Positions 10,158 to 46,336 of a stretch of 64,000 nucleotides of DNA are shown here, one piece after another. Position 1 is the stretch's first letter; each line of letters starts with the position of its first letter. Source of the stretch: Candidatus Latescibacterota bacterium (GTDB taxonomy: Bacteria > Latescibacterota > UBA2968). Below the pieces are notes generated by a model. The model did not search any database. It was not told the DNA's origin and saw only the letters and a list, made by a program, of their open reading frames with translations. Location of the stretch: the NCBI GenBank assembly GCA_965214925.1, contig OZ244028.1, positions 3,710,058 to 3,774,057 on the forward strand. Reading direction: 5' to 3'. The translations under genes were made by a program, and so were the position numbers.

Positions 10158-10201
10158 AAAAGCCACTCCTTTCAAACAACCAGAACAAGCCGCACCTCGG
10201 C

Positions 10202-11965: not shown

Positions 11966-12218
11966 ATTTCGACTCGATCATTTCGACGATGTGATCCACC
12001 GCATCGCGCGCATCTTCTCCTTCCGCCCGCACCGTGATCATAGAACCCTCTTCTGCAGCCAACATCATCACGCCCATAATGCTCTTGCCGTTGATCGCGA
12101 GGCCATCTTTTTTTAATATAATTTCAGAAGTAAATTTGGCTGCTGCCTGCACCAGCAAAGCCGCAGGTCTCGCGTGAATGCCCAGTTTATTTTTTACTTT
12201 GGCCCGTTGTTCTGGCAT
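11958..12218 (-). CDS. ptsH: phosphocarrier protein HPr
   Basis: 'KVKNKLGIHARPAALLVQ' contains His15, and 'KSIMGVMMLAA' is the Ser46 region. The start is at the internal ATG, giving about 86 aa. The gene overlaps the ptsI start by 8 nt. Confidence 0.9.
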   Translation of the reverse strand: MPEQRAKVKNKLGIHARPAALLVQAAAKFTSEIILKKDGLAINGKSIMGVMMLAAEEGSMITVRAEGEDARDAVDHIVEMIESKFD

Positions 12219-12270
12219 AAAGTATGTCACCCGTGAAAAATTTGAAAAACTTTTAACGTCAATCATGCAG

Positions 12271-29264: not shown

Positions 29265-29927
29265 TAGGTTAAGTCAATAAACTTTTTTGAAGAATCACTC
29301 ATCTAACCTGTTGATTTCAAAGAACCTCTACACCAAAAAACTGTCCGAAGTATTGAAACACAAACACGTTGATTTCAAGGAGTCAAATCGTGAAGTCAAT
29401 TTCGGACATGATTAACGAACTCACGACACTGTATCACTACAGCATCAAATCTTTGGGAAGTGAACTCGGAGTTTCTACCTCTACCCAGTAATTTCTGGTT
29501 AGGCTTTTGCAGAGAGGAGACAGCGAGGTCACAGAAGGGTTGCTCAAAGGCAATTTCCATGAAAGGTTAGAGTTGTCAGAGAAAAATTCTACCCTTTCAA
29601 AGGAGACCTGCCCATACTATCTCTCAGGAAAAAGAAAATGTATGGCCTCAAGAAACGCCAACATTTTCTGCCCTGCTTTCGCCTTTAGAAGCTCAATTGC
29701 CCCATCTCACCCCGTTGGAATCGGGAGCAATAAACCGCTGACTTGCACATCAAACAAACGTCAATCGGTTTTTCTGTTGCCGTTTTTTATTTTTCGGCTT
29801 TTCTTTGCCTTCTGCCGCTCCGCTTTTCGCCCCCCCCATACCTTTCGCCTTTTGTCTGTGTCTATTGGTGTTAATACTCGCTTCTCACTTCTCGCTTCTC
29901 GCCTCTCCCCGATTTCAAGGACGTATC

Positions 29928-32900
29928 ATGCACTATATCGCCGATGTACACTTGCATTCGCGTTTTGCCCGCGCGACGAGCAAGACTTTGAATCCCGAAA
30001 ATCTGTACCGGTGGAGTCTCATCAAGGGGCTGACTGTGGTGGGTACGGGCGATTTTACCCATCCGGTATGGGTTGAAGAATTGCGGGATCAACTTGACTC
30101 GGCCGAAGCGGGGTTGTTTCAATTGCGATCCGAGTTGCGGCGAGGTGTCGATGCCGAGTTGCCGCCCGCCTGTCGGGGGGAGATGCGCTTTGTCCTCTCG
30201 GTTGAGATCAGTCTCATTTACAAAAAAAATGGCAAGACGCGAAAAATTCATCACGTCGTTTTGATGCCGAGTTTTGACGCGGTGGCGCGTTTGAATGCTC
30301 GACTCGGCGCGATTGGCAACCTGAAGTCCGATGGGCGGCCCATTCTCGGCTTGGACAGCCGGGATCTGGTGGAGATTTGTCTAGAGGCGTGTGATGAGGT
30401 GTTGTTTATTCCCGCGCATATCTGGACGCCCCATTTTGCCGTTTTGGGGGCGAGTTCTGGGTTTGATACGCTCGAGGAGTGTTTTGAAGATATGCTGCCC
30501 CATATTTTTGCCGTAGAAACCGGTCTGTCTTCGGATCCGCCGATGAATTGGCGCCTGTCCATGCTAGACGATTACGCGATTATCTCCAATTCGGACGCGC
30601 ATTCCCCGCAAAAATTGGCGCGCGAAGCCACCTGCTTTGATACAGACCTTTCGTTTCGCGGGATGTATGAGGCACTGCGAGACCGCGATCCAACGCGGTT
30701 TCGGGGCACGCTGGAATTTTATCCCGAGGAGGGCAAATACCACTTTGACGGACACCGAAAATGCCATGTGTGTTGGAAACCCGCGCAGACGATTGAGGCA
30801 GAGGGAATGTGCCCGGTGTGCGGGCGCAAGTTGACGGTTGGGGTATTGCACCGCGTGGAAAGGCTTGCAGACCGCCCGGAAGGCGACCGGCCAGCCATGG
30901 CGATGCCGTTTGAAAACTTGATCCCATTGCCGGAGATCATCGGATCGGTTTTGCAAGTGGGCCCCACGAGCAAGCGCGTGCAGGGCGTGTACGAGCGCAT
31001 GCTTGCGGCCCTCGGGCCGGAGTTGAAAATTTTGCGCGAATTGTCCGTTGAAGAGATCGCAAAGACAGGGGATCCCCTCATTGCTGAGGGGATCCGGCGG
31101 ATGCGCGAAGGAGAGGTTCACATCGCGCCGGGATACGACGGGGTGTACGGAAAAATTCAGGTTTTTTCCGATGAGGACCGCGCGCGCTTGAGCGGACAAG
31201 ATACCCTGTTTCACGTGCCGAAGAAAAAGGGCACATCGCGCGCAGCAGATCGCCCGCGCGCGGAACGCGCGAAATCGGACGGGCACCGCGACGCCGCACA
31301 GCCACTTTCAGATACGGGATTGGACGCAGACCAACAAGCCGCGGTCGCGATGGACAAAGGGCCTGTGGTGGTGATTGCGGGACCCGGCACAGGGAAAACG
31401 CGGGTGTTGACGCATCGCATAGTCGATCTGATTCAAAATCGCGGGGTGTCCCCATCTTCTGTGATGGCCGTGACATTTACCAACCGCGCCGCGGTTGAAA
31501 TGTGGGCGCGCGTAGTGGCCTTGTCCTCGGGTGGCGAAGAATTGGTGCCGATGCGCGTGGGCACGTTTCACCGGTTGGCACTGGATTTGTTGCGCGAGTA
31601 CGCGCCCGACCGGTTGGGCGCGATCGCGGATCGGGGCGACGCGCGCGGCATTTTGCAAGAGACCATGGCCGATGTTGAGGCCGACCTATCGGCCGATCGC
31701 GCGCTTTCTGACATTTCGCGGTGCAAAGCCGAAGGGCAGCACCCAAACGATGTTTTGGATGCCGAATTGCGGGCTGTTTATGCGGCTTATCAGCGTCGCA
31801 TGGCAGCTTATGGGCTGATGGATTTCGATGATATTTTGCTCGTTCTAAACGATGTGCTTTGCGGCGATGTTTTGCGGGACGTGCAGGCGCGTTTTTCCCA
31901 CGTTCTGGTCGATGAGTTTCAGGATGTCAATGCCGTGCAATACGCCTTGGTTCAAAAATTGGCCGGAAAAGGTGCGGGTCTGTTTGTCATTGGCGATCCC
32001 GATCAGGCGATCTACGGTTTTCGGGGGGCGTGCGCGGCGTATTTTGCGCGGTTGAACGCGGATTTTCCCGGGGCGCGCGACGTGGTTTTGCAGCGCACAT
32101 TTCGCTCAACCCCTCAGATTATTTCCGCGGCGTCCGGTCTGCTTTGCGGCCGGTCGTATGTTGCGGTGCGAGAAGATGGCGCGAATCTAAAATTGTTATC
32201 CACGCCGGGGGAAACGGGCGAGGGCATTGCCATTGTGGATGAGATTGTGAAACGGGTTGGGGGCGCGGATTTGTTGCAGGCCAACGAAGAGGGCACGCGC
32301 GGTTTGGACGATTTCGCGGTTTTGTTCCGCACGGGCCGTCAGGCAGACGCCCTGGAGGCGTGTTTTTTGGAGGCGGGCATTCCCTATCGCGTCGTGGGGC
32401 AGAAGAGCTATTTGGACGCGCCGTCAGTGCAACAGGCACTGGCGTTTTTTAAGTACGCCTTGCGCGGCGATGCCCGCGCGCTGATCGATGTGTTGTCCAT
32501 CCCCGCGTTCGATCCCGGCCGAGCCGCGCGCGCGGCGCTGCGAAAGCGCGTTCAAAAAGGCGTTTTGACCGGCGCGCTGCCGGACGCGGTGCAGGAGAAA
32601 TGGGATGTTGTGATGGCGGCTGTGGATCGTTTCCGCGAGGCAGTGTCGCACCAGTCGCCTGCCGAACTCGTCGAGATGTGGACAGGCGAGTTTGCGATGC
32701 CTGACGATGTAGATATCGCGCGGTTGGCCCTTTTGGCCCAAGGCGTGGATTCCATCGCGGCGTTGTTGGACGTGGTCGCCCTGGGGCAAGAGGGCGATTT
32801 TGTCCGTCAGGGACGGGTCGTGCGTCCCGAAGCCGTGACCCTGATGACCTTGCATGCGTCCAAGGGACTGGAGTTTCCCGTGGTGTTTGTCTGCGGTGTT

Positions 32901-33146
32901 GAGGAGGGATTGTTGCCCTATTCCGACGCGGATGTCGCAGAGGAACGACGGCTGTTTTTTGTGGGCATCACGCGCGGGCAAGATGAGGTGATTCTCACGC
33001 GCGCCCGAAGTCGCCTGCGGTTTGGCAAACGCATTCGCCCCGAGGTGTCGCGGTTCGTGGCCGATATTCCCGACGAGGTGATCGACTGTGTCGATCTGCG
33101 AACCGAGCGGCATCCCAAATCCGCCGAGCAATTGTCGCTGTTTTAG
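29928..33146 (+). CDS. EndoQ-like PHP/Zn-finger endonuclease fused to UvrD/PcrA-type SF1 helicase
   Basis: The N-terminal ~460 aa carry 'ADVHLHSRFARATS', 'GTGDFTHP', 'IHHVVLMPS', 'PAHIWTPHF', 'SNSDAHSP', 'GKYHFDGH', 'CPVCGRKL' and 'GYDGVYGKIQV', the EndoQ motif order. The C-terminal half has 'VIAGPGTGKTRVL', 'TFTNRAA', 'VLVDEFQD', 'GDPDQAIYGFRGA' and 'MTLHASKGLEFPVV'. The start is set at the ATG at 29928, after an AAGGA SD. Confidence 0.85.
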   Translation: MHYIADVHLHSRFARATSKTLNPENLYRWSLIKGLTVVGTGDFTHPVWVEELRDQLDSAEAGLFQLRSELRRGVDAELPPACRGEMRFVLSVEISLIYKKNGKTRKIHHVVLMPSFDAVARLNARLGAIGNLKSDGRPILGLDSRDLVEICLEACDEVLFIPAHIWTPHFAVLGASSGFDTLEECFEDMLPHIFAVETGLSSDPPMNWRLSMLDDYAIISNSDAHSPQKLAREATCFDTDLSFRGMYEALRDRDPTRFRGTLEFYPEEGKYHFDGHRKCHVCWKPAQTIEAEGMCPVCGRKLTVGVLHRVERLADRPEGDRPAMAMPFENLIPLPEIIGSVLQVGPTSKRVQGVYERMLAALGPELKILRELSVEEIAKTGDPLIAEGIRRMREGEVHIAPGYDGVYGKIQVFSDEDRARLSGQDTLFHVPKKKGTSRAADRPRAERAKSDGHRDAAQPLSDTGLDADQQAAVAMDKGPVVVIAGPGTGKTRVLTHRIVDLIQNRGVSPSSVMAVTFTNRAAVEMWARVVALSSGGEELVPMRVGTFHRLALDLLREYAPDRLGAIADRGDARGILQETMADVEADLSADRALSDISRCKAEGQHPNDVLDAELRAVYAAYQRRMAAYGLMDFDDILLVLNDVLCGDVLRDVQARFSHVLVDEFQDVNAVQYALVQKLAGKGAGLFVIGDPDQAIYGFRGACAAYFARLNADFPGARDVVLQRTFRSTPQIISAASGLLCGRSYVAVREDGANLKLLSTPGETGEGIAIVDEIVKRVGGADLLQANEEGTRGLDDFAVLFRTGRQADALEACFLEAGIPYRVVGQKSYLDAPSVQQALAFFKYALRGDARALIDVLSIPAFDPGRAARAALRKRVQKGVLTGALPDAVQEKWDVVMAAVDRFREAVSHQSPAELVEMWTGEFAMPDDVDIARLALLAQGVDSIAALLDVVALGQEGDFVRQGRVVRPEAVTLMTLHASKGLEFPVVFVCGVEEGLLPYSDADVAEERRLFFVGITRGQDEVILTRARSRLRFGKRIRPEVSRFVADIPDEVIDCVDLRTERHPKSAEQLSLF

Positions 33147-33814: not shown

Positions 33815-34840
33815 TTATTGACCCCATTCCCTCGTCAAGTAATTGGATGACGGACTCGCATTGATGTTCAAGAGATCGCGGATTTCTTTCGCAAGCTCAA
33901 TTGCTTTGCCGCCTCGTGTATTATCGGTAACTACGAACCGCGCTCCAGTGGCTTTAACGTACTCAATGGTTCCTTCAAAGTCAGCGTGATTCGAAAGTGC
34001 TACGGCAAAGGCCCGTTTCGAATATTCTGTTACAGGTTCATCACTGCGGGTAAAGTATGCGCTGAGTGTGATCTGGGTTGAATTACCCATGTCGGTAGGT
34101 TCGCTATCACCTGTGCTATAGACTCTTATCAACCGATTTTCGTTGACTAACTGCTTCCCGTCAAGAGAGTCGGCATCCACCAATGAGCCAATGGTGTAGC
34201 CGAAATTTTTATAGATATTTATTTCCTTGCAGAGTCGTGCGCTAGCGATGATTGGGCAGTCTATCTCGACGGAGATCAATTGAAGCGCTCGCTGGATTGT
34301 GCCTCGATGAGCCTTGATATATACAGACCCATGTACCAATCTTTGATTGATCAGGGTTATCAGACGTTCTTCGCATTCTCCTTGTGAGAATCGACGGACG
34401 CTACTTGGCGATCCGTATGTTCCATCAACTACGAGACCATCAACCTTGATTACTTCGTCGAGGGGCCATTGGAAATCGCCGGAGTAGCCCAGGCGCGTGC
34501 CATTGGATAGTTCTACGAGAACTTGCACGGCACCTAACATATGTCCGCTTGGTACCAGATATACCTTCGAGGTGCCAATTTTATGCCATTCTCCCTTGTC
34601 AAGACTCTTGATGTTGGAGCGATAGGGCAGTTCTGCATTGTGCTCGCAAATGAGAAGTTGACGAGTCGGCTCGCTCATAATAATGTCTTGTATGCCTTTA
34701 CTGGAATCAAACCCGCTCATATGATCTGAGTGGATGTGTGTCTGCACTCGCGCCTTGGCATTGCTTAGAAAGCCATCGCAGCTTATGTCATCTCCCAGCG
34801 AAATGGCTCCTGAAGCATTTACGTCTATCGGATACTTCAT
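33815..34840 (-). CDS. metallo-beta-lactamase fold nuclease, compact beta-CASP type
   Basis: 'THIHSDH' (HxHxDH), 'VPSGHMLGA', 'GYSGDF', 'LVVDGTYG' and 'ALSNHADF' occur in the order typical of the beta-CASP (RNase J/CPSF73/SNM1) family. 4-nt ATGA overlap with the upstream gene. Confidence 0.75.
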   Translation of the reverse strand: MKYPIDVNASGAISLGDDISCDGFLSNAKARVQTHIHSDHMSGFDSSKGIQDIIMSEPTRQLLICEHNAELPYRSNIKSLDKGEWHKIGTSKVYLVPSGHMLGAVQVLVELSNGTRLGYSGDFQWPLDEVIKVDGLVVDGTYGSPSSVRRFSQGECEERLITLINQRLVHGSVYIKAHRGTIQRALQLISVEIDCPIIASARLCKEINIYKNFGYTIGSLVDADSLDGKQLVNENRLIRVYSTGDSEPTDMGNSTQITLSAYFTRSDEPVTEYSKRAFAVALSNHADFEGTIEYVKATGARFVVTDNTRGGKAIELAKEIRDLLNINASPSSNYLTREWGQ

Positions 34841-35541
34841 GCATAGCTCCCACGCACGTCTATTGCAGCATTGATATCCGTCTCTAGTTGGTCTGGTTCC
34901 ACATCAAGGAGTTTTGCCAAATCGTGGTTGGAGATAATCGTAAAGTTGTTGGGGCCGAGTCGACTAGTCGCCGGATAATTAAAAGGGAGTATCTTGTTCA
35001 TCGTTTGATCCATCAGTTCATCGCGCTCCTGCTGTGTGAGCGTTGTCAAGTACTGCTTCGCCTCGTTGTTAATAATTGCTCCAGCAAAAAGGTATCGAGT
35101 CTCGACCTGTGGTCGTAGTTTCAAGATATCAGCGATACAGTCGTGGACTGACTTTCGGGAACGCTTGGCTATCTGAACCAACTGTACTACCTCTTTCCAA
35201 GTGAGTCTGTGGCGGAGTATCGCCTCTGCCGCTTTGATCTGATCTGCCGGCTTTAGCGGTGCCAACTCAGCAAGCGTTGAGAATGCTATGGATGCACCTG
35301 TGGTTCCTCGCCAATCAGATAAGTGCTGGATATCGGGGGCAAGCCTGACGAGTTTCAGAAAGGTCGATATCTGAGTCGTGCCTACCTGCAACGCTTCGGC
35401 ACATTCTTTATGCAGGGTTCCAGCCGTAACTGCCTTGTTGAGCAATTGGGCAACCTCCAGTGGCGACAGAACGCGCTCACTTCGATGGGTACCAACGGAC
35501 AGGATGAGGTCCCTGTATTCGTCAGTTGAAAGTCCTTTCAT
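34837..35541 (-). CDS. ParB-like HTH protein lacking the ParB/Srx N-domain
   Basis: 'LSPLEVAQLLNKAV...CAEALQVGTTQISTFLKLVRLAPDIQHL' resembles the ParB HTH/middle domain. ATGA overlaps on both sides. Confidence 0.6.
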   Translation of the reverse strand: MKGLSTDEYRDLILSVGTHRSERVLSPLEVAQLLNKAVTAGTLHKECAEALQVGTTQISTFLKLVRLAPDIQHLSDWRGTTGASIAFSTLAELAPLKPADQIKAAEAILRHRLTWKEVVQLVQIAKRSRKSVHDCIADILKLRPQVETRYLFAGAIINNEAKQYLTTLTQQERDELMDQTMNKILPFNYPATSRLGPNNFTIISNHDLAKLLDVEPDQLETDINAAIDVRGSYA

Positions 35542-36368
35542 GAAGCAGGTTCCTTCCAGAAGTCATTGATATACAGCCCGTCTTGGATGAGCCTTCCGGC
35601 CGCGTCATCACTGTTTGTTCCCTCGGATTGGGCGTATTGTCCTAATGCGGTATGCACTTCCGAGGTCAGTGTGACCACAAGTTGAGTAATACGGCCTCCC
35701 GTCTTTGCCGTTTCAATCACATCATCTGCGGGCGTAGTCGGATCTTTTTTTCGTTCGTCTAAAATTTTCTTTTGCTGTGCTCCAGACATTGGGGCCATCT
35801 CTTTGGCGAACATGACCGCTTCTTCTATGTTGATGTCTCCACTACTACTTGCGGCCTGTTGGGCGCGTAGGGCAGTCGGTAGTGGCACACTACTGTCATC
35901 TACCAAAACTTGTAGTTGGGGGACTAACTGATCATACTTCACATACTGGCTCACTTTCGGGTAGGATAATCCAGTTTGCTCTACCACTGCTTTTATGGAG
36001 CCGTAGTGCTTGTAGAGCCATGTGCAAACATCAATGAGGTCAGAAGAGTTGAGGTCCAGTCGCACTAAATTTTCGGTAACGGACAGCACTTTTGCTGTGA
36101 GTTCGTCCACAGACTCATCCAATATAGCGGCCAGGATTGTCTCTGTTTCGAGGTGTACGTGGGCCATGAACCGTCTCTGCCCGGTAACAATCTCGTACTT
36201 GCCTTCCAGGTCGCTTTCGCAGACCACGATCGGTTCGAGAAGTCCCACTTTCTGAATGCTGGCGGCTAATTCATCAATCTCCTTATTCACATTGCGTGTT
36301 CGTGCCTGCGCTTTTCCTATGGTGAGATTTTGGAGAGGTATCTCCCGTACTTCCTTGATGTGGGCCAT
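35538..36368 (-). CDS. ParB/Srx N-terminal domain protein with HTH and RHH-like C-terminus
   Basis: 'IPLQNLTIGKAQARTR...LAASIQKVGLLEPIVV...YEIVTGQRRFMAH' is the ParB box region. The C-terminal 'ITQLVVTLTSEVHTALGQYAQSEG' is RHH-like. The start is set at the ATG preceded by an AAGGAG SD; the ORF extends to 36407. Confidence 0.75.
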   Translation of the reverse strand: MAHIKEVREIPLQNLTIGKAQARTRNVNKEIDELAASIQKVGLLEPIVVCESDLEGKYEIVTGQRRFMAHVHLETETILAAILDESVDELTAKVLSVTENLVRLDLNSSDLIDVCTWLYKHYGSIKAVVEQTGLSYPKVSQYVKYDQLVPQLQVLVDDSSVPLPTALRAQQAASSSGDINIEEAVMFAKEMAPMSGAQQKKILDERKKDPTTPADDVIETAKTGGRITQLVVTLTSEVHTALGQYAQSEGTNSDDAAGRLIQDGLYINDFWKEPAS

Positions 36369-36432
36369 TTTATATTCTCCTTTTGACTGTTGAGGTTCGA
36401 AACTCAATTCGTCTGCAAAATAACAATTTCAA

Positions 36433-36510
36433 CTACAAATGGCAAATCGCACATCTCTCGGTTTCGTCAATCATGGGCAAGGACCCAAGACAGATGTGTT
36501 TGGTCTTTCC
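36433..36510 (-). pseudogene. remnant of the 3' end of a second sspD/dndC-like (PP-loop) gene
   Basis: Translates as 'GKTKHICLGSLPMIDETERCAICHL*', compared with the intact SspD-like C-terminus 'GKTLDDIANQPLRDLPVIDETEGCAICHL*'. The 48-nt core 36434-36481 matches 42029-42076 at 43/48 positions. A TAA stop lies immediately upstream in frame. Confidence 0.8.
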
Positions 36511-36568
36511 TTAGCCATCTATCAACTTCCTTTCTTGAAATAGGTTCGACTCCCTCTTATACCTCCTG

Positions 36569-37024
36569 TTATCGCAATAACTCATCCAAAGCGTCAGAAA
36601 GATTCCAGATTGGTTCCAGGTCGTCATCGCGTAGCATTTCTACGATGTAGGGAACGCCCGCTGCTGCCAGACCATTGGCAATGGTCATCATGCGCCGTGG
36701 TTCACCTACGATTTCCACATTGTCCTCAACAGCGATAGCAACTAGCATCACTGCCTGAATTCGCCAACTGTCCCGGTCAAAGATCGAGCCTTCAATGAAC
36801 TTGAAGGTTTTCTGCCTGGCTAGATCAATCGGCCTGAGTTGCTTTCGCGCTGCGACTGATAGTCCGACAAACCAGAGATCAACCATGCGTGGAAACGGAC
36901 ATTGGTCAATGCTGGTAGTACCGCCCCTTGTCTGAGTCTGGCAATAACGGTCATAAGCGTCACGTTGATCAATAGGTGCAATCAGATCAATGCCGGCGAA
37001 TGGATTATGATATCGCTGTGTCAC
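36569..37024 (-). CDS. 151-aa hypothetical protein, possibly dnd-system-associated protein 4 / SspF-like
   Basis: Lies 10 nt downstream of the DndD-like ATPase gene. The helical protein ('MLVAIAVEDNVEIVGEPRRMMTIANGLAAAGVPYIVEML') is assigned by context and memory only. Confidence 0.45.
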   Translation of the reverse strand: MTQRYHNPFAGIDLIAPIDQRDAYDRYCQTQTRGGTTSIDQCPFPRMVDLWFVGLSVAARKQLRPIDLARQKTFKFIEGSIFDRDSWRIQAVMLVAIAVEDNVEIVGEPRRMMTIANGLAAAGVPYIVEMLRDDDLEPIWNLSDALDELLR

Positions 37025-37034
37025 TGCTGCCCTC

Positions 37035-39176
37035 CTAAAATGTCTGTTCCATTTCTGATTCTAAATCCATCCGTCGCTGGCACACTGTACATTCTCTGCG
37101 ATGATTGCACTCGCACCACAATACTGTCCGCTCTTTCATCTGTGGGTCATTGATCAGCATGCGGGGATAGTGCGCCGGATTTGTCAGCGTGATCACTCGT
37201 CCTGCTTCAGTATCCAGAATGTCCTCGCAGTCTGCGATCTCAGAGCGCGTGAGAAACAGGACAAGTTGCGAACTTTCGCGGATAGCGGTCTTGAGCACGG
37301 ACCGCTTGACATAGCCACTCATCATTCCAAGCGGTGTATCAATCACATTGGGGGCTTCAACCTCACTCACCTTAGTCAATGCGAGAATAAAGGCGAGGGT
37401 CAGTGCCCGCCGGGAAGCACCATTCAAGTCACGGTCAGGATTCAGTGTCCGATTATCCGGTCCATAGACCAAAATATCGAATTCTTTGCTAATTTCCGCC
37501 TTTTGAATGATTGCGTTCTGTTCAGGGTCGGCACCGATCATTTCCAGGAAGATTGCATTCATTCGCTCACTGACCTTAGCCAATTCTTCATTCGTAATCC
37601 GATTATAGGAATTTTCCAGAACTTGCTTTACGTCCTGCGTTACTTCAAGTTGCGCCAATATGCGAGTCCCCTTCTTCTGTTCTCGAAGAAGGTTATTGCG
37701 GGTTGCGCTCAGAGAGATTTGTTCTTTTTTCAGCCCTTCGAGCTGGGTTTCGTATCGCACTTGGTTAGCGTAGAAGCGGTCACGCTGATTTGCATAGCGT
37801 CGCTTAGTATCACAAAGGCCCTGAATGTCAATATCCGGTATATCGCCAAGTTTTACTTCAAGAGCCTTGCGTTTCTTTCCCTGATCTACGAGCCTAGAAT
37901 CTTGCTCGTCGCGGTGTGCAAAGATCTTGGCATATTCGGCAAGCCAGCGTTCTTCATCGGTGACCTGATCCGGCTGAAATGACCGGGATCCATAATAAAG
38001 GTCGGTGACTATTCTTTTTGACTCATCCTCCTTCCGACTCTCATCGATCAGGCACTGGATATGGTTTCTTCGTCGTTTGCCATCACCATCGTTTGGAGCC
38101 AGCGACTCACCGCAAATACAAGTAGTACCCTTGAGGCGTTCTTCAAGGACGGGAATTGTCTCGTTGGGTATCTTGCCTTGGTCGTACAGTCTGTTCAACT
38201 CTCCGAGACTTTTTTTAACTACGGGGGCGAGGAGGTCACGTGAAAGCGAAAGGCTGCGAAACAATTTTGAATGCGCTTTGCCGGCGGCCTCTCTCTGTTC
38301 CTTGATCTGCTTTAGCTGTGCTTCGGTTTGTTCGATATCGCGCTTGAGTGCTTCCCGGTCGCCCTTGATCAAGGCTGCATCGATCTTCTTTTGAACCTCG
38401 GCGAGCTTTTCATCGTACGCTGAAAACTGTTCCTTCGCATCATCTCTTCTTTTTTCCAGGTCTGCCGAGACTTCATTAATCTGATCCAACCGAATCGCGA
38501 TCTGGGTAAGTTTCTCATCGGCCTCAATATTTTTTGCCGCCTTATTGACCTCAGAAGCTGTCTTTTTTATATGCCCTAGTGCATCCTCAATCACGCCAAG
38601 CCCCAATAAAGACCGGATCGCCTTTTCAACGCGCTCGCGCTTGGTTCTGACGTTCACATCTGCTTCGATGAAGCTCAGCGCACGGTCCCCGTCGGTAAAA
38701 AATACTTCACGAAGCTCGGGTGGGAGTTCATCATTAATCAGTGATTCAGGCCAGCCAATAGGCTCACTGCCGGTGTCTGTTAATTCGAACAGTTTTACTG
38801 TCGATGGAGTGTGATCCCATTTATCGCCGTTTAATGTCTCAAATGCTGATCGTATAATGAGATATTGTTGTCTGGTTTCAAATGAGCCTCTTGGGCCTCC
38901 AAGCTTCGTTATCTCAAATTTGACCTGTACGGATATTGGAACCCTACTGCTGTCCGCTACATCCCAATCGATCGGGTGGAGGCGGTAATCTTGGCGTTTA
39001 CCGGGCAAGGCATCATCGCCATAGAGTGCCCATTGCAGTCCATTCAGAATGGTGGTCTTTCCGGTTTCATTCTCGGCCCGGATGACTGTTAGTTTCTTCG
39101 AAGTATCTGTTGAGAAGTCCAAATCCAGAGGGCGCAAAAGGCGAAAATTTTCAAATTTGGCGCTGATCAGTTTCAT
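37035..39176 (-). CDS. DndD-like SMC/Rad50-type ATPase (SspG-like?)
   Basis: N-terminal 'FENFRLLRPLDLDF...VIRAENETGKTTILNGLQWALYG', a long coiled-coil middle, and C-terminal 'LNGASRRALTLAFILAL...APNVIDTPLGMMSG' (compare DndD 'VIDTPLGRLD'). The terminal cluster is CxC...CxxC. Confidence 0.75.
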   Translation of the reverse strand: MKLISAKFENFRLLRPLDLDFSTDTSKKLTVIRAENETGKTTILNGLQWALYGDDALPGKRQDYRLHPIDWDVADSSRVPISVQVKFEITKLGGPRGSFETRQQYLIIRSAFETLNGDKWDHTPSTVKLFELTDTGSEPIGWPESLINDELPPELREVFFTDGDRALSFIEADVNVRTKRERVEKAIRSLLGLGVIEDALGHIKKTASEVNKAAKNIEADEKLTQIAIRLDQINEVSADLEKRRDDAKEQFSAYDEKLAEVQKKIDAALIKGDREALKRDIEQTEAQLKQIKEQREAAGKAHSKLFRSLSLSRDLLAPVVKKSLGELNRLYDQGKIPNETIPVLEERLKGTTCICGESLAPNDGDGKRRRNHIQCLIDESRKEDESKRIVTDLYYGSRSFQPDQVTDEERWLAEYAKIFAHRDEQDSRLVDQGKKRKALEVKLGDIPDIDIQGLCDTKRRYANQRDRFYANQVRYETQLEGLKKEQISLSATRNNLLREQKKGTRILAQLEVTQDVKQVLENSYNRITNEELAKVSERMNAIFLEMIGADPEQNAIIQKAEISKEFDILVYGPDNRTLNPDRDLNGASRRALTLAFILALTKVSEVEAPNVIDTPLGMMSGYVKRSVLKTAIRESSQLVLFLTRSEIADCEDILDTEAGRVITLTNPAHYPRMLINDPQMKERTVLWCECNHRRECTVCQRRMDLESEMEQTF

Positions 39177-39418
39177 CGGATACCTCCCTCGGCCATTTTG
39201 GTTTGACCTCGCTTCTCCGCGAGAAAATGGCCTGCCGCATTACACTTGTCATTTATCTGTTTTTGAATATTCGTTCTCGATACGCGATGCGCTCTTTCAT
39301 ACTGAAGGATGTCGGAGATTACTTCGATCATCTCCTCTTGGTATCCGTCGCATCTCTCCTCAACCGTTTTGCACTCATCGAGAATGATGCTGATAATTTT
39401 TCGTTCGTTGAGCGGCAT
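39173..39418 (-). CDS. 81-aa hypothetical protein
   Basis: ATGA overlap with the DndD-like gene and 12 nt after the PLD-helicase gene. Helical and charged, with no recognised family. Confidence 0.5.
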   Translation of the reverse strand: MPLNERKIISIILDECKTVEERCDGYQEEMIEVISDILQYERAHRVSRTNIQKQINDKCNAAGHFLAEKRGQTKMAEGGIR

Positions 39419-39430
39419 TGTCTCCCTCCC

Positions 39431-41671
39431 TTAGAAAACTGCGTTGACGAGTTCATGAATGAGACTCAGCGGGCCGTCAGCCCTGCCGGCATTTCGCGCA
39501 AGGCTGGCAAATTCCTGTATCCGCAAGAGTTCCGATCGGATTAGGGTGCGGGCCTCACCGTCGATATTACCCATATCCGGCGGCAATGCGATGAAGTCGT
39601 GAATCTCGCTATGCGTTTTGCCAATTTCGCGGCAAGTGCGGAGAAGTCGTCCTCGACGCTGTACCCATTGCCGTTCCACTGTGGTACTTGCGAGGATGAA
39701 AGCCTTTTCAATCTGCGGAATGTTCACGCCTTCGTCAAGGACGCGCTTTGCGGTAAGGACGCGATGTGTGCCTTCTTGAAAGGACTGAATAATACGCGCC
39801 ATCTTATCGCGGTTCGCTGTTTCTACGTGAGTAAGTTGGTGAAAAAGTACTCCGTGTGTATTCAATAACGCATTGACGGCGTTGAGTTGCTGTGGTGCCT
39901 TATCAGAGGCATAAATCAACGTATGGCGAAGCGTCCGAAGGTCTTCGCGTATCAAGGCTTTCTCTAGAGCAGCAATTTTATTTTTAGCATTTTCTAAGAG
40001 TGCCCGACGGTCTCTGAGCAACTTGGTGAGATACTCATCGGGTTCCCCGTTCTCCTGACGCCAAGCATTCGCCTTGATCTTCGCGGTGAGGGCATACCAC
40101 TCATCCATCTCATCCTGCGTGAGTTTCACTGGATGGACGTAGTAATCGTATTCAACGAGACATCGCCCGATTGCTTCCTTGAGTGTGAATTGGAAAACAA
40201 CCGGGCCAAAAAACGAAAACAGGATCTCTGTTCCCTGTTCATCATATTGGCGAATAGGGGTTGCAGATAGACCAAGCCTGTAATCGAAGAAAGAGGGCAG
40301 ATCAGTTATGAATCCCTCACTTCCCAAATTGTGTACTTCATCCGCAATGAGCAAGGTATCACAGTCAAATTTTTCAACTTCAGCCTTAAACGCGCTATTG
40401 CAAAGTGTACGGTGCGAAACGACAACGGCCTCAATGTTGCTCATTCCATTTCGGAACCGCCGTTTGATCCTATTGAGTTCATGTGCCCGTCCCCTTGCGC
40501 CATTGGCCGCGGTCAGATTAACCGCTTTGAGTCCAAAGGGCGCGATCTCATCACACCATTGCTGAATGAGGGGGACATAGGGAGCCGCAACGACGATAAG
40601 AAGAGGTTTATACACATCATATAGCCTATGAGCGCAAATCATGGCAGTGATCGTCTTGCCCGACCCGGTCGCCATTTCCAAGACGCCCCGATAACCGGCT
40701 TCACACCAAGCCTTGACTGCTTTGCCTTGGTGCTCAAATGGTCCATCCTCAAATTGAAGGTCTGGTGGTATCGCAAATGACCCGTAGAGTTTAGGAGATT
40801 CTTCCACAACTGAAAATTCAGTTGCCCGCCTATAGAGCGCGCGCAAATCTGTCTCTGTTGGCGGGATGTCAGAGCAGTAGGTCTGCAATAGCTGTCTCTG
40901 GATAGCCTGTGGCATCCCAACGACGATGCAGCGATCATCTTCATTTTCCCAAAGCTGTCCGAATTGGTCACAAAACTTTTCGGTGATGTAGCGTTGGTTG
41001 GGATCCTCCCACGATTTGGAAATGGAGATTTGCTCAATATTCTTCCGAATACCGGCATAAGTCATGTTGCTTGACCCGTGCGCTGCTATTACATCACCAT
41101 CTCCACTAAAGAGCCAAACCTTTGGATGGAAAAGCGCGTCTTTCATCAAGGCAATTTTGATCTTGATGCGCCCACTACGCAGCAACCAAGAAAGACATTT
41201 CAGCGTGTGTTTCTGAACGAGGTCTTCAGTGACAACAATATCTTCTAAAGCGGCATTGGCGATATCTTCAGGAGAGATCACGCCTTTTTCGATTGCGGCC
41301 TTGTCTTCGGCTCGGAGAAGGGGACTGATGATCAAGCGAAAACTTTCTTGTGAGCAGTTTACAAAAGTAGCCAAGCCTGGGGCTAGTGACGCCAAAACCT
41401 CACTGGAAAAGAAGCCCACCATGCAATCAACTTGGGCAGCGGCCTGAAAGCATGGAATAAGCACCTCTTCTGTCACCGGATCATCAGGTAGTATGTAGAG
41501 TGGCCTTGTATCGGACACTGACCGCAGAGTCCTGCCATTGATCTCTGCCACCTTCAAATCCCTATCAGGTGCTACTTGGGCGACTGATCTGCCAAAGTGC
41601 TTTCGCTTGGGGCCAACTTTTCGCACTTGCAAGGTTCGCAAGTCATACTCTGGACGCAGTTCATCCTGCAT
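39431..41671 (-). CDS. PLD-family nuclease + SF2 (ResIII/DEAH) helicase fusion, PT-system restriction-enzyme-like (SspH-like?)
   Basis: PLD motif 'FHPKVWLF...AHGSSNMT'. Helicase motifs 'MATGSGKTITA', 'LIADEVHNLGS', 'GLSATP' and 'QRRGRLLR'. The start is set at the ATG at 41671, 7 nt after the brnT stop; the open frame extends to 41758. Confidence 0.8.
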   Translation of the reverse strand: MQDELRPEYDLRTLQVRKVGPKRKHFGRSVAQVAPDRDLKVAEINGRTLRSVSDTRPLYILPDDPVTEEVLIPCFQAAAQVDCMVGFFSSEVLASLAPGLATFVNCSQESFRLIISPLLRAEDKAAIEKGVISPEDIANAALEDIVVTEDLVQKHTLKCLSWLLRSGRIKIKIALMKDALFHPKVWLFSGDGDVIAAHGSSNMTYAGIRKNIEQISISKSWEDPNQRYITEKFCDQFGQLWENEDDRCIVVGMPQAIQRQLLQTYCSDIPPTETDLRALYRRATEFSVVEESPKLYGSFAIPPDLQFEDGPFEHQGKAVKAWCEAGYRGVLEMATGSGKTITAMICAHRLYDVYKPLLIVVAAPYVPLIQQWCDEIAPFGLKAVNLTAANGARGRAHELNRIKRRFRNGMSNIEAVVVSHRTLCNSAFKAEVEKFDCDTLLIADEVHNLGSEGFITDLPSFFDYRLGLSATPIRQYDEQGTEILFSFFGPVVFQFTLKEAIGRCLVEYDYYVHPVKLTQDEMDEWYALTAKIKANAWRQENGEPDEYLTKLLRDRRALLENAKNKIAALEKALIREDLRTLRHTLIYASDKAPQQLNAVNALLNTHGVLFHQLTHVETANRDKMARIIQSFQEGTHRVLTAKRVLDEGVNIPQIEKAFILASTTVERQWVQRRGRLLRTCREIGKTHSEIHDFIALPPDMGNIDGEARTLIRSELLRIQEFASLARNAGRADGPLSLIHELVNAVF

Positions 41672-41678
41672 TGTTGTC

Positions 41679-42005
41679 TCATCCTTCCTCATACCTGCCT
41701 GCCAGAGTCGCGCGACAGGCAGGGGTTTGTCTCTCTCTGCGGGTTGTTTCTCTTGCACTAATCAAACGAATCGCATCTCCCCGCTCGGTGTATGATACGA
41801 TTAACAAACGACCGCGCTTTGATTGTCCGATGATAATATACCGATGCTCATTATACGAGTGATCGGGGTCATAAAAATCAATATAGAGCGTGTCCTTGAA
41901 AACAGCACTTGCTTCGTCGAATGACACACCGTGCTTTGACAGATTCGCCTCTGCTTTGTTTTTATCCCATGTAAATGCCATAGGCATAACGTCTGATAAA
42001 TCCAA
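41679..42005 (-). CDS. brnT: BrnT-family (DUF497) toxin
   Basis: 'FTWDKNKAEANLSKHGVSFDEASAVFKD...DHSYNEHRYIIIG...LLIVSYTERGDAIRLISARETTRRER' fits the BrnT family pattern. Confidence 0.8.
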   Translation of the reverse strand: MDLSDVMPMAFTWDKNKAEANLSKHGVSFDEASAVFKDTLYIDFYDPDHSYNEHRYIIIGQSKRGRLLIVSYTERGDAIRLISARETTRRERQTPACRATLAGRYEEG

Positions 42006-42027
42006 AACCCTAATTTACACAGAGAGG

Positions 42028-42855
42028 TTACAAATGGCAAATCGCGCATCCTTCGGTCTCGTCAATCACGGGCAAGTCTCTAAGGGGTTGATTTGCAATG
42101 TCGTCTAAGGTCTTCCCATCCACCCAAGTAAATTGCTTCCCATTTTTCGCCTGCTCGTATTCCTTTGCTTTCTCAAACAAATCGGGATGTTCTTCTTTCA
42201 ACCGCTGCCATTCCCCAACCTGCTGGTAAAAGCAAAAATAGCATCCCGACCGCGACCGCCATTTGTAGTACTCCGGCAGACCAAGCCCTGACTCCTCCAA
42301 AATCTGCACAACATCCGCCAAGCCAAGTCCATCGTCCTTAAACGGATAAACGGGAATGATATTGGGCTGCTGAGAAATCGAGGGTGGTTTTTTTGCAATA
42401 TATCCATCTCGGTCTTCATCGTCGCGGATGCCGATATAGCTATACGCCCGGCTGTTGCCAACGTAATCTTCAAACGGTTCGATTTTCAACACGCGCGTAC
42501 ACCACCGCGATCTCGGGCTGGGCAAATAGCCGCCGTATATCTCATTCAAATACATATCAAACGGAGTGCGCCCGGGCTTTTTCTCCACCCCTAAACCGTC
42601 GAGCGCGTTTAGGCGACGAACAGTAACGCCAAGCAGTGCCTCTAAGCACTCCAAATACGCATACGTTTCATCTAATTCACATCCGGTGTCACAGAAGACA
42701 TACTCCACAGGGATTTGGGGATAGTTCTGCCGCATATAGATGGCCAAGGCGGCTGAGTCTTTCCCCCCTGAAACACTGACGATATGCCGAATGTCAGTTG
42801 CTGAGCCTGTCGAAACATCAGACAGATTGTTCAAGGCATCTTGTATTGTGGCCAT
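42028..42855 (-). CDS. sspD: PAPS-reductase/PP-loop ATP pyrophosphatase, SspD-like
   Basis: PP-loop 'VSVSGGKDSAALAIYM' and a C-terminal Cys cluster 'CYFCF...CAICHL'. The start is at the ATG 1 nt after the sspC stop; the ORF extends to 42924. Confidence 0.8.
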   Translation of the reverse strand: MATIQDALNNLSDVSTGSATDIRHIVSVSGGKDSAALAIYMRQNYPQIPVEYVFCDTGCELDETYAYLECLEALLGVTVRRLNALDGLGVEKKPGRTPFDMYLNEIYGGYLPSPRSRWCTRVLKIEPFEDYVGNSRAYSYIGIRDDEDRDGYIAKKPPSISQQPNIIPVYPFKDDGLGLADVVQILEESGLGLPEYYKWRSRSGCYFCFYQQVGEWQRLKEEHPDLFEKAKEYEQAKNGKQFTWVDGKTLDDIANQPLRDLPVIDETEGCAICHL

Positions 42856-42856
42856 G

Positions 42857-45800
42857 CTAATCCTTTCTCGTATTGTCTCTGAGAATGTGTGCAAACAAAT
42901 CACGGGCTTCTTCCGCACCAACAATATGGGTTAAACGTCCATACAATTTCTTCATGCGTTCTTGGACGAGATGAGTCAACCCATTTTTCATTGCGCCGCT
43001 TACACGGAACTCAGACGACAGGGCTAATTCCTCAATGCGTCTCACTGCGCTGTGAATTTCCCGATCAAAAGCTGCGATGCTGCTGTCATCCCATCGGTTG
43101 AGCGTCTTGCGAAGCAGCAAGCTAGACAGGGAATCAATGAGTTTGTCATCAGACGGATACGGCATACGCACACGGGAGAGGAGGCCCTTTGACACACTGT
43201 CATTGAGCATATTGGACAATTCATCGGGAAAACAAAATGCCCAATGGCGCGCGATCTCCTGCACATCTCTGTTTTTGGATTTCCAGTTCAGAGACAGGGC
43301 CCTAAGTAAAGAAGCAATTGCTTCTTTCCGGTAGCCGTCAATGACCTCAGAGAGTTCATTTTTGCATTTTTCGAGGGATTCCAACAACAAGTGTTGCTCT
43401 TGAATTGAGCACGCTAATGCGCTTGGAATGCGCTCAAAAAGCAGTTCCACCGGATCGGACTGCTGACGAAGTGCTGTTTGGAAGCGACGGGTTTGCGCGG
43501 TTAAACGCCGGGTTGAAAGCGCGCCTGTGGGAAGACTCATCTTCCAGTTTTCAAGCGCGTCATAGCAGGCCCGAATGAGATCATTTCCATTCGCTTCGCT
43601 CAGGACAGGTCCGGTCGTTAAACTTTTCGCCTGTGCCACACCGCCAAAGCGTTCGCAAATAGCCCGAAGATACGCTCGTTTTGTCTGATCGAGATCTAAG
43701 ACAGTAAATTCATATATTTCCGGTTCACGACATAACGCCTCAATCCTCGAAGGCAAAATATCAGACACATAACGCCCTTTATAGCGCAGAGAAAACACAC
43801 TCGGAAACGCTTTGAGACCTGCGGAAAAGAGAATGGGCAACAACCCGGCGCGAACCCCATAAGGAGGTTCCATCAGTTCATTGAAGAACCCTCGAATATC
43901 CTTGGGTTTTACCGATGGCATTGTGAAAAATGCACGCACCTTATCCCAAACATCGCTTAGCCCTTCATCCTCCACTTCCTCGGGCATCGCATAACGCCAG
44001 CGTCCCTGCCTGCGCCGCGGGCGCGGTAGGCAGGCATCATCGTCTTTTCTGTACAATCCCGTGTGTAGCAGCACCGTGCGGAACATGGACGCAGCAGGGG
44101 AATTGCCTTCAATCCCGAGATTCTCTTGACCGCTCCGTTCGAGAATACCGAGCAAGAGCTTCTTGCGCGCGTTCACCATAATGGGGGTCGGTTTGCGCCG
44201 AACAATCATCTCATTGTTGATCTTGGGTGTATGCGGGAAAATTTTTGACATGATTTTGGATAGTTCGTTCCTCAAGTCATAAGCACTTTTAACGGGCAAC
44301 TCGTTATTTCGAAAAAAATAGCGTGGCCCGTCACCACTCGGCAGGATCAACCGATCGAGAAGCTTTTGAAGATGGCTACGGGCATCATCTGTCATCTGTT
44401 GAATTTCAGACAACACATGCGGGTCTGATTCCACCAACTTATCATCCTCCTGCATCTGAATTAAACACCACACTTCCAAAGCTGTCTCAAACAGAGGGAT
44501 AGGGGCTTTGGGTATCGCAAGAATAACCCGTTCATCGCGCACGTGCTTGGCAGCCAGTGAACTTCTGTCGAAGTTGTACACCACTCGCTCTGCTTCCCGA
44601 AGTTCCTCTGCTGTCTCGACAATCACATAGATACAAATACCGTCACATCCAACAGGAATATTATGAGAAATGTTTGCCCCCAAGTATTCATCCAGTTTTT
44701 CCAAGCTACGATACGCGCCTAGAAGAAAACGCCTGATGTGAAAGTCGCTGTTATATGTGACCGGTCGCCAAACAGGAGGACTAGCCTCATCTGCCAAGAA
44801 AGTCATGAAATCGAATGTCCTTCGCTGCCGTGATTTTTCTTCTTCAAGCCTGCCCCGAAGATCGACATCTGTCCCATGCCAAACAGAGACTTCATCGCTG
44901 TGTTTTCTGTGTAAAAGGAGCTTTCTGTCTATGAGTTGATCAACGACTGCTTCTGCCTGCTGTGGTTGACGATAGCCGCGCAGGGCAAACAGCAGCAAAT
45001 CGCGGGACGTGCGAGACCGCTCGCCACCGACCCCGAAACCCAACAGGCTTGCGGTTCGCAGTGCTGTTGCCGCCAGGTCATTGTCATCGTCCAACTTCGA
45101 GAGGGCACTTTGTGTTTCGAGCCATTGTCTATATGTTCCCCCTACGGCTGTGTCTGTACGCATTTCAGGTGAAAAGTATTCGTAGAGATGGTCCGGCCGA
45201 ACGAGATGCTGAAAGTCCATAAAATTGAGAAAGCTGAACAGTGTTCTTTCGTTCTGAGCGACTCGGCCGGAAAGGCGGGGTAACAAGTACAGGGTCGTCG
45301 GCTCTAGGGGATATGCTCGGCGCAGAAGCGATTCGAGTTCCGGTAGGGTAAAGTCGGAAAACAGCCCGAGTTGCTTGCACCATTTTGCATACGACATAGC
45401 TTGTTTGGCAGGCAATTCAGAATAGATGGTCAGATCGGAAAACAGGCCGATCTGATCGTCCCCTTCCTGCCTGTGCGTTGCACGCAGACAGGTTGCAGGC
45501 ATGCGGTTCTGTGCGGAAACCACTTCGGATATCAAGCGGTATATTTCCTTGCTGTCGTCGATATACTGAATCGTCTGAAAACGACCCTCAATTTTTCGCC
45601 ACTCGGATCGAACCGACTGCGGCATACTGCCCGCATATTGCAACAACTCTTGATGCAACAACAGCCCGAGCGTTACGGGAATGGCCTGTGATCGACTCAC
45701 AAACTCAGCCAACAATTGAATTTCACTCAAAGCAACGGAACGCCCCTCAGAAATCAAAGACTCAATATGGCGTCCAAACTCATCCCACAAAATCGCAATC

Positions 45801-46336
45801 CGATCACAGCCTGCGGCGCGCGCCTTGTCCCGAACCACACTGAGCAACGCAATTGCCTGCTCAATTGTCTCACACGGCATTGACGCAATAGTACGAGCTT
45901 GCCGACCGAGTTTCATACGCCGCATTCCCTTCAGCGCGGCATCTTTCAGACTTTCGCTCAAATTCCGACAATAGTCCTGCAATACCAGCACAAGTCCTGT
46001 GTCTTTATTCTTGCGGCGTTCTTTGGAAAATTTGCCCAAATCTGGACTGACAACCCGTAGCCTGTCTTCGACCACAGTGAGTGTCTCATCAGCATTGGGG
46101 CGATTTTCAATCATAAGCGACAAATAGGTCGCCGTAATTGACTTTCCCGTTCCATAAGGCGCGACAACAAAAAATGCCCTGTCTCGTTCAAAACCGAGCA
46201 GGGATTTTATGAGAGGGACACTTTTAGCCGTGGGTTGGTAGTGTGCAATCCGATCCGGATAATCTGCATCGTATTGAATGTTGATGGAACGCAGAAATAC
46301 TTCAGCATCGAACTCAACTATTTTCTTACGCGGCAT
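42857..46336 (-). CDS. sspC: large P-loop ATPase, SspC-like
   Basis: 1159 aa with Walker A 'VVAPYGTGKSITA' and a probable Walker B 'RIAILWDEFG'. It lies between the DUF4007-like and PP-loop genes, with overlapping stop and start codons. Confidence 0.7.
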   Translation of the reverse strand: MPRKKIVEFDAEVFLRSINIQYDADYPDRIAHYQPTAKSVPLIKSLLGFERDRAFFVVAPYGTGKSITATYLSLMIENRPNADETLTVVEDRLRVVSPDLGKFSKERRKNKDTGLVLVLQDYCRNLSESLKDAALKGMRRMKLGRQARTIASMPCETIEQAIALLSVVRDKARAAGCDRIAILWDEFGRHIESLISEGRSVALSEIQLLAEFVSRSQAIPVTLGLLLHQELLQYAGSMPQSVRSEWRKIEGRFQTIQYIDDSKEIYRLISEVVSAQNRMPATCLRATHRQEGDDQIGLFSDLTIYSELPAKQAMSYAKWCKQLGLFSDFTLPELESLLRRAYPLEPTTLYLLPRLSGRVAQNERTLFSFLNFMDFQHLVRPDHLYEYFSPEMRTDTAVGGTYRQWLETQSALSKLDDDNDLAATALRTASLLGFGVGGERSRTSRDLLLFALRGYRQPQQAEAVVDQLIDRKLLLHRKHSDEVSVWHGTDVDLRGRLEEEKSRQRRTFDFMTFLADEASPPVWRPVTYNSDFHIRRFLLGAYRSLEKLDEYLGANISHNIPVGCDGICIYVIVETAEELREAERVVYNFDRSSLAAKHVRDERVILAIPKAPIPLFETALEVWCLIQMQEDDKLVESDPHVLSEIQQMTDDARSHLQKLLDRLILPSGDGPRYFFRNNELPVKSAYDLRNELSKIMSKIFPHTPKINNEMIVRRKPTPIMVNARKKLLLGILERSGQENLGIEGNSPAASMFRTVLLHTGLYRKDDDACLPRPRRRQGRWRYAMPEEVEDEGLSDVWDKVRAFFTMPSVKPKDIRGFFNELMEPPYGVRAGLLPILFSAGLKAFPSVFSLRYKGRYVSDILPSRIEALCREPEIYEFTVLDLDQTKRAYLRAICERFGGVAQAKSLTTGPVLSEANGNDLIRACYDALENWKMSLPTGALSTRRLTAQTRRFQTALRQQSDPVELLFERIPSALACSIQEQHLLLESLEKCKNELSEVIDGYRKEAIASLLRALSLNWKSKNRDVQEIARHWAFCFPDELSNMLNDSVSKGLLSRVRMPYPSDDKLIDSLSSLLLRKTLNRWDDSSIAAFDREIHSAVRRIEELALSSEFRVSGAMKNGLTHLVQERMKKLYGRLTHIVGAEEARDLFAHILRDNTRKD

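Follow-up and report, generated by a model that had tools for sequence, protein, structure and literature searches.

The window analysed here is a 64,000-nucleotide (nt) stretch of Candidatus Latescibacterota contig OZ244028.1 (assembly GCA_965214925.1), and its own numbering is used for all window coordinates below. It carries a locus for phosphorothioation, a sulfur modification of DNA, with the order SspABCD-BrnT-PbeABCD-sspD stub-ParB-ParB-MBL, probably on a Latescibacterota chromosome. How did a second, truncated end of sspD come to lie between the PbeABCD and ParB-ParB-MBL modules, and which of the two modules was there first? We favour, with a probability of roughly 0.7, the reading that the stub is what remains of an older sspD allele whose 3' end was displaced, the scar of a homology-anchored recombination that put brnT-pbeABCD behind sspD and displaced ParB-ParB-MBL. 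Loci used for comparison are labelled L followed by a number.

A second sspD 3' end between two modules

All genes of the stub region lie on the minus strand. The stub (36433..36481, minus strand) comprises the last 15 codons and the stop codon of a second sspD allele, and its minus-strand translation ends in LPMIDETERCAICHL and the stop, against LPVIDETEGCAICHL and the stop in intact SspD. Positions 36434-36481 match 42029-42076, the 3' end of the intact gene, at 43 of 48 positions without a gap, exactly as a first-pass annotation of the sequence had reported. BLAST of the joint against the window returns E = 5e-13, and a degenerate repeat pattern finds these two copies only in the window and no match in 100 dinucleotide-preserving shuffles. 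The similarity is not an effect of low complexity, a doubt that the annotation had itself raised; it sets in with the second base of the stop codon and breaks off abruptly at 36481/36482. An in-frame TAA lies farther upstream. The stub has no start codon or ribosome-binding site (RBS), and its sole ATG open reading frame (ORF) is 13 codons long and RBS-less, so that both marks of a pseudogene fragment, homology to a functional parent gene and a truncated or interrupted frame, are present.

The stub lies 65 nt upstream of the ATG of ParB1 (36368), and position 36510, where the annotation drew its boundary, lies 58 nt below the stop codon of a 151-amino-acid (aa) gene (36569); both distances had been given correctly. 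The annotation had also extended the remnant through 36482-36510 (GKTKHICLGS, with a 12-nt indel) to "about 25 codons". This extension is not supported, as it aligns at the level of shuffled sequence (p = 0.24-0.57), and so do the 80 nt upstream of 36481 when compared with sspD 3' regions or with the longer stub of metagenome contig L086 (see below). A collinear alignment of our own to the L086 stub, built on a common 10-mer (ATGGCTAAGG), was rejected since shuffles score as well, and an apparent copy of the ParB1 5' leader upstream of the stub (TCGAACCT...AAAGGA...ATGGC) is not significant (p = 0.25). As far as alignment can carry the assignment, derivation from sspD demonstrably applies only to the 15 codons and the stop at 36433-36481. 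The 87 nt between the PbeD stop and the stub (36482..36568, minus strand) resemble neither sspD nor the L086 stub significantly (p = 0.24-0.57) and are of unassignable origin; the spacer from the stub's stop codon to the ParB1 start (36369..36432, minus strand) holds the -10 part of a promoter-like site. The joint matches no Rfam family and has no stable or unusual fold.

The joint in independent assemblies and in a possible related strain

A single 26,886-nt Logan contig recovered from three samples (depth 8-210) agrees with 35800-37300 at every position and contains the intact sspD copy as well, 5595 nt from the stub. In a fourth run of the same study, every sampled word is present. Misassembly is ruled out because identical contigs in three independent short-read assemblies span the joint, and the chimerism for which the annotation had proposed a check is thus excluded at contig level. 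Among the assembled contigs, none has the deletion joint that loss of the segment between the repeats would leave.

Run X6, from another study, contains a 151-nt contig that equals 36431-36489 exactly and continues below 36431 with unrelated sequence. The breakpoint is 2 nt past the stub's stop codon, and the divergent part, which reads TGAATGGAGGTATAAAGTGGAACACTTAGA in gene orientation, has an RBS and a GTG. This alternative junction occurs neither in the window nor in any of the fetched loci or genome_contigs. Together, runs X6 and X8 yield ten contigs that match the Pbe, ssp and flank regions with 0-2 differences, and no contig from the 2.6-kb ParB-ParB-MBL trio, a gap with about P = 0.04 under even coverage on thin data. 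This suggests a near-identical strain with other DNA behind the stub, in which the trio was possibly replaced.

sspD stubs in other loci

The ParB1 family comprises 926 proteins at E <= 1e-10, and one of the two closest to ParB1 of the window (72% aa identity) is encoded on the ENA metagenome contig L086. This contig starts with the last 50 nt of a PbeD gene, followed by a 146-nt sspD 3' end, a post-sspD hairpin, and ParB1. The L086 stub reads AKEYE, a stop, IKNEKKFTWVDGKTLDVIVNQSLKPLPVIDETEGCAICYL and a further stop; it is 87% identical to sspD of L009 and 80% to that of the window. The hairpin is the one found behind sspD in L008 and L006, so ParB1 once lay directly behind an sspD of the window's clade. 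A second lineage thus has the same PbeD-stub-ParB1 joint and retains a longer piece of sspD.

When each of 79 SspD loci was searched for a second copy of its own sspD end, two further stubs appeared, both in Latescibacterota. The stub of L010 (14893-14920; 28 nt, 93% identity, reading LTEGCEICHL and a stop) lies 23 nt before a gene for a PbeA-like helicase, which is accompanied by a MzaB-like HATPase; a 235-aa ORF, a DndB-like protein and insertion sequence debris separate it from the intact sspD. The stub of L030 (12963-13205) retains 81 codons at 88% identity and has lost its stop; GIY-YIG and DndB-like genes stand between it and the intact sspD, and a helicase and a HATPase follow it. The helicase and HATPase behind these two stubs share 35-44% aa identity with the set that directly follows intact sspD in L008, which argues that the stubs mark an older sspD-module adjacency in front of which a newer module was inserted. 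The window, L010 and L030 all show a displaced 3' fragment with an intact older module downstream. Further stubs were sought with a pattern scan, which gave chance matches and already known loci only. We take the 49-base stub of the window to be a true recombination scar, in itself a commonplace type of feature.

The sspD stop codon as the edge of a variable slot

The closest SspD proteins (86-91% aa identity) come from Candidatus Latescibacterota metagenome-assembled genomes. In eight close relatives, nucleotide similarity to the window spans sspABCD and breaks 0-16 nt from the sspD stop codon (window 42012-42029). What follows sspD differs between them: PbeABCD in L006; in L005, GIY-YIG and DndB-like genes ahead of a BrnT remnant and PbeABCD; an SspFGH-like set in convergent orientation in L007 and L050; a helicase, a MzaB-like HATPase and a PLD protein in L008; and DndB-like genes in L011. 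The similarity break and the differing downstream content together identify the sspD stop codon as the left edge of a variable effector slot. The slot is closed by a conserved flank with a UvrD-like helicase gene (29805..33146, plus strand; Pfam UvrD-helicase), which in the window lies past MBL and in L011 (17455-20690) lies 6.6 kb past sspD. Between the two repeats of the window there is no integrase or transposase, only BrnT and PbeABCD. No second sspD end follows PbeD in L005, L006 or the Verrucomicrobiota locus L111.

Allelic origin and age of the stub

The window stub, the window sspD and the L086 stub differ at 12 sites, nine of which are third, three first, and none second codon positions. 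Since third-position bias arises under coding constraint, the stubs stem from already diverged functional alleles, and, on this codon pattern, the window stub points to a different functional sspD allele rather than a decayed local duplicate. In type it is the window's own Latescibacterota sspD, not the Chloroflexota one. Its Val-to-Met change also occurs in the functional SspD of L005 and L050, and only Gly-to-Arg affects an invariant residue. The stub matches the sspD 3' ends of the eight Latescibacterota relatives at 39-42 of 49 positions and the window's own sspD at 43 of 49. Gene conversion from the resident sspD was considered; by these counts, its own sspD (43/49) resembles the stub no more than that of L006 does (42/49). 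The 9/3/0 pattern and the three further loci support the annotation's proposal that a second, diverged sspD allele joins two Ssp-linked modules here.

The cores of the window and L086 stubs agree at 40 of 49 positions, against a neutral expectation of 0.40-0.59 identity (P <= 6e-4); the synonymous divergence (dS) is 0.9-1.5 for the neighbouring ParB genes and 0.6 for SspD of the clade. The Gly-to-Arg change at an invariant position suggests relaxed constraint, whereas the conservation of the core and the third-position bias run the other way.

The ParB-ParB-MBL trio is linked to sulfur modification genes in many phyla

We surveyed 99 other loci with a ParB1 relative by scanning the fetched flanks. 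An adjacent SNF2 helicase gene is present in 70 of them, and a gene of the PAPS-reductase family in 66 (DndC-like in 58, SspD in eight). The commonest order, found in many phyla, is DndA-DndC-GmrSD-SNF2-ParB1-ParB2-MBL, with SspBCD-SNF2-ParB1-ParB2-MBL in Chloroflexota (examples are L125:4324-12565 and L002:3406-12545). The DndC-like proteins pass TIGR03183, GmrSD corresponds to DUF262/DUF1524, and the set that follows DndA-DndC-like-GmrSD usually comes with no obvious DndD or DndE; its ParB and MBL proteins match no PADLOC model. The window shares the PAPS-reductase neighbour, with sspD 5.6 kb and the stub 65 nt from the trio. It does not have the four-gene SNF2 set, as no SNF2 helicase gene was found in the whole window; SNF2 was also not seen in L085 and L086. 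These data support an association of the trio with DNA sulfur modification. In the searched literature we found no description of SNF2-ParB-ParB-MBL with Ssp or Dnd genes, or of sspD stubs; the stub also singles out an unstudied set that is linked to DndC or SspD in dozens of genomes from many phyla.

PbeABCD takes the usual place of SNF2 in the window, in L111, and probably in L086, where only the PbeD 3' end is on the contig. In L111 (5010-12540; Terrimicrobiaceae, Verrucomicrobiota), PbeABCD is followed 112 nt on by ParB-ParB-MBL, with no SNF2, no stub, and no Ssp or Dnd genes in the 10 kb upstream.

In the window, the trio (33815..36368) consists of ParB1 (35538-36368; ParB_N with a GxRR box), ParB2 (34837-35541; HTH_ParB) and MBL, a beta-CASP-like nuclease (33815-34840), all assigned by Pfam and all on the minus strand, with stops that overlap starts. 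By likeness to PDB structures, ParB1 resembles the CTP-binding N domain of Noc/ParB and MBL resembles SNM1A; MBL also hits NCBIfam TIGR04122 at 9e-18, below the cut-off. None of the three matches the PADLOC models for SspE, SspF, SspG, SspH or the Dnd and Pbe proteins, and an exact-protein look-up of ParB1 returned no record. The ratio of nonsynonymous to synonymous substitution rates (dN/dS) of the trio against its closest relatives (L085) is about 0.1, which indicates that the trio is maintained by purifying selection.

Two observations concern the surroundings of the trio elsewhere. On L085 and L086, the contigs closest to the window's trio, a Multi_ubiq / Prok-E2 / JAB-ThiF / BubE set, a ubiquitin-like defence cluster, lies a few kb downstream (L085:5679-8230, L086:4491-7140); it is absent from the window. 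In the Dehalococcoidia locus L003 (10001-12383), ParB1 is split into residues 1-177 (10001-10639) and the rest (12033-12383) by about 1.4 kb with a 463-aa minus-strand ORF, probably an insertion element.

Proposed displacement of an older module and alternative explanations

In the scenario that we favour, sspABCD of the ancestral locus would have been directly followed by the ParB-ParB-MBL operon, and DNA arriving from a related Ssp locus would have contributed at least an sspD end and (brnT-)pbeABCD. It could have entered by a Campbell-type single crossover, within the sspD 3' region, of a circular fragment composed of an sspD 3' piece and the new module, or by one homologous crossover in the ssp genes combined with an illegitimate join inside the recipient's sspD. 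Either route would leave a full-length sspD, the new module, a truncated sspD 3' end, the original stop codon, the spacer, and the old module. Campbell-type integration and homology-facilitated illegitimate recombination predict a full-length gene, an insert, a truncated 3' copy and the original downstream DNA. This predicted product is the observed one, with a truncated copy that starts abruptly at the end of the insert. Both are mechanisms rather than a family of elements; nothing in the locus tells the two routes apart, and no intermediate was seen. The stub itself is not translated and may supply part of the ParB operon promoter as well as a short homology patch for further exchange. We see directly the homology with its sharp limits, its presence in independent assemblies, the gene content and the parallel cases, and from there we infer arrival order, crossover mechanism and any residual function. 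On this account the scar dates and orders events, as it would place ParB-ParB-MBL directly behind sspD at an earlier time; with the two parallel cases, it would mean that new modules enter at the sspD end and push older ones downstream. Such scars recur in the clade and would give the order of events, and they offer a concrete way, open to testing, in which modules of phosphorothioation-dependent effectors could turn over.

Several observations weigh against so simple a history. An intact sspD of the same clade directly before the trio was not found among 80 SspD loci, 80 + 15 ParB1 loci and three ENA contigs. The annotation's proposal that the trio was once the immediate neighbour of sspD is supported by the stub-hairpin-ParB1 arrangement of L086 and by the linkage to Chloroflexota Ssp and to Dnd genes, and lacks an intact precursor in the clade; in Chloroflexota, sspD precedes the trio with SNF2 in between (SspD-SNF2-ParB-ParB-MBL), and none of the 80 SspD loci has the trio downstream. 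The SNF2 helicase that accompanies the trio in most other lineages is missing from the window. The L111 locus has Pbe next to the trio without a stub, which means that this adjacency can arise otherwise or be functional. The order of Pbe and the trio would follow by analogy with L010, L030 and L008 and is not directly shown, and the X6 contig indicates that the junction of stub and trio may be secondary. Finally, the stub core is too conserved, so that a single ancient neutral scar is too simple: the excess conservation needs repeated formation of stubs, refreshment by recombination with functional sspD, or selection on the core.

Among the alternatives, one is that insertion of Pbe duplicated the final ~50 nt of the resident gene, in the manner of a target site, by slippage or by repair synthesis, and that the copy then decayed neutrally. 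It would explain the direct repeats around the 5.6-kb insert and a stub that is as close to its own sspD as to those of the relatives, with GAC/ACC/TGC states in common. We nevertheless consider it improbable, given the third-position bias without any second-position change, the L086 stub that is nearer L009 than the window allele, and a length of 48 nt that is far above the usual size of target-site duplications. The annotation had argued against a simple target-site duplication too, and the lack of a transposase or integrase in the insert, the Pbe modules without flanking repeats in L005 and L006, and the codon-like differences all agree with it. The same two loci, which have no second copy, count against the notion that a mobile brnT-pbeABCD element has the repeats as its att-like ends and is moved by a site-specific recombinase encoded elsewhere. 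Many integrative elements do have direct repeats located at a conserved gene's 3' end; here, no recombinase lies in or beside the segment, stub lengths vary by locus (28, 48, 146 and 243 nt), and the inserted modules vary too, which together speak against a site-specific element and make this origin very improbable. An assembly chimera or collapsed repeat, for which there is only the a priori risk of metagenome-assembled genomes, has a negligible chance: three samples give the identical 26.9-kb contig, a fourth run concurs, and L086 shows the same gene order independently.

A different proposal, compatible with an origin as a scar, is that the stub is kept as functional DNA, either as a promoter or operator of the trio, a role that the intact sspD 3' end may likewise have for the genes behind it, or as a homology anchor for cassette exchange. 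A sigma-70-like site (TTGCCA-17-TATTTT, 36445-36417) stretches across stub and spacer with its -35 hexamer inside the stub, and a counterpart (TTGCCA-17-TAAATT, 42040-42012) lies at the end of intact sspD, both being consensus matches only. Promoter-like hexamers of the same kind are present in both copies, with the -35 TTGCCA falling within the CAICHL codons. Conservation of the core above neutral expectation next to unrecognisable upstream sequence, the X6 breakpoint 2 nt after the stub's stop codon, and purifying selection on the trio would also fit. On the other side, promoter matches of this kind occur at chance frequency (0.6 expected per region); L086 does not share the -10 and has a terminator-like hairpin in its place; no RNA runs were found for mapping transcription start sites; and RecA would act poorly on 48 nt at 90% identity. 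We regard such a function as rather unlikely.

A broader generalisation can be offered tentatively. In this clade the sspD 3' end may serve as a portable homology anchor at which host recombination adds phosphorothioation-linked effector modules before older ones or swaps them behind the stub, each event leaving or refreshing a stub; the trio would then be an effector of DNA sulfur modification, or a partner of it, that is still uncharacterised. Renewal of the stub at each event would explain why the stubs resemble recently coding alleles, and near-identical strains would differ in the DNA behind the stub.

Comparison with known systems

The closest parallel are the orphan rhs-CT/rhsI and cdiA-CT/cdiI modules, which are displaced 3' gene fragments behind the main gene (Koskiniemi et al. 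2014, PMC3967940). Like these, the stub is a truncated 3' fragment that lacks initiation signals, follows the full-length copy, is joined to an intact older module, and may have enough sequence in common with the main gene for recombination; in both cases, successive arrivals would stack modules. The sspD anchor differs in being a neighbouring modification gene instead of the effector gene itself, so the displaced modules stay complete operons and need no fusion for expression. The homology is also shorter, 28-243 nt here versus 522 nt at 95% there (PMC3967940), and recombination is here read from the sequence.

Phosphorothioation defence systems pair SspABCD with SspE or SspFGH, and DndABCDE with DndFGH or PbeABCD (PMC9646914, PMC10853773). 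The window resembles published loci in its complete SspABCD and PbeABCD, in their domain make-up, and in the variable effector position. It departs from them in that PbeABCD, described with Dnd (PMC10853773), stands behind SspABCD, and in that a second module, ParB-ParB-MBL, follows PbeABCD. The fixed boundary at the sspD stop and the differing defence modules in close relatives recall defence-island hotspots and integron-like arrays. Unlike integron-like arrays, the locus has no integrase and no attC-like structured repeats, and what is repeated is a piece of the adjacent gene's coding sequence.

Gene content of the locus

The modification genes form a collinear minus-strand module of a cysteine desulfurase (SspA), a DUF4007 protein (SspB), a BrxC-like ATPase (SspC) and a PAPS reductase (SspD). 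The ORFs of sspA (47228-48418), sspB (46326-47231) and sspC (42857-46336) are collinear with SspABC of L005-L011, and their products share 59-83% aa identity with those of the relatives; SspA, SspB and SspC of L002 and L097 match the PADLOC models of these names, and the window proteins are placed by this collinear identity. The sspD gene (42028..42855) encodes a PAPS-reductase/PP-loop protein of 275 aa (PADLOC SspD, 4.8e-94; Pfam PAPS_reduct). SspD of the window covers positions 1-221 of the 277-position PADLOC model and has a C-terminal CxxC (CAICHL), while the Chloroflexota SspD of L002 matches the full model and ends in CLACHK, so there are two SspD subtypes with different C-termini.

A brnT toxin gene (41679..41987, minus strand; Pfam BrnT_toxin, 4.9e-29) lies between sspD and pbeA. 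No recognisable brnA follows it, and Pfam is blank for 41500-41758. An antitoxin-like peptide (MQDELRPEYDLRTLQVRKVG...) reads in frame as an N-terminal extension of about 90 aa of the PbeA ORF. The brnT gene is missing in L006 and degraded to a fragment in L005, and DNA homologous to 41686-41564 directly follows sspD in L006 and L008, both of which are without brnT.

The pbeABCD module (36569..41758, minus strand) occupies the interval between both sspD copies and shares 68-87% aa identity with L005 and L006. It contains the nuclease-helicase PbeA, a small PbeB, a CxC ATPase PbeC and a DndE-cognate PbeD. PbeA (39431-41758) combines HKD and SF2 helicase domains (PADLOC, 7e-197, matching from residue 91; Pfam PLDc_2 and ResIII), and PbeC (37035-39176) is a CxC ABC ATPase with a CIC motif (PADLOC, 2.5e-46; Pfam AAA_23). 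PbeB (39173-39418; 81 aa) is assigned by position, and PbeD (36569-37024; 151 aa) by position together with its homologs in L005, L006 and L060, with no match to a hidden Markov model; the roles of both follow PMC10853773. What the annotation had called PLD/helicase-DndD-like genes are these genes, and the label gives way to PbeABCD.

PbeABCD behind SspABCD was also seen in L005, L006, L070 and L082, which cover Latescibacterota, Thermodesulfobacteriota and Arenicellales. Contigs of 5-17 kb from the same samples have in common with the window only patches of 25-30 nt in pbeD/pbeC (36869-36898 and 37168-37192), which are 262 nt apart in the contigs versus 269 nt in the window and probably belong to a Pbe paralogue of a co-occurring organism.

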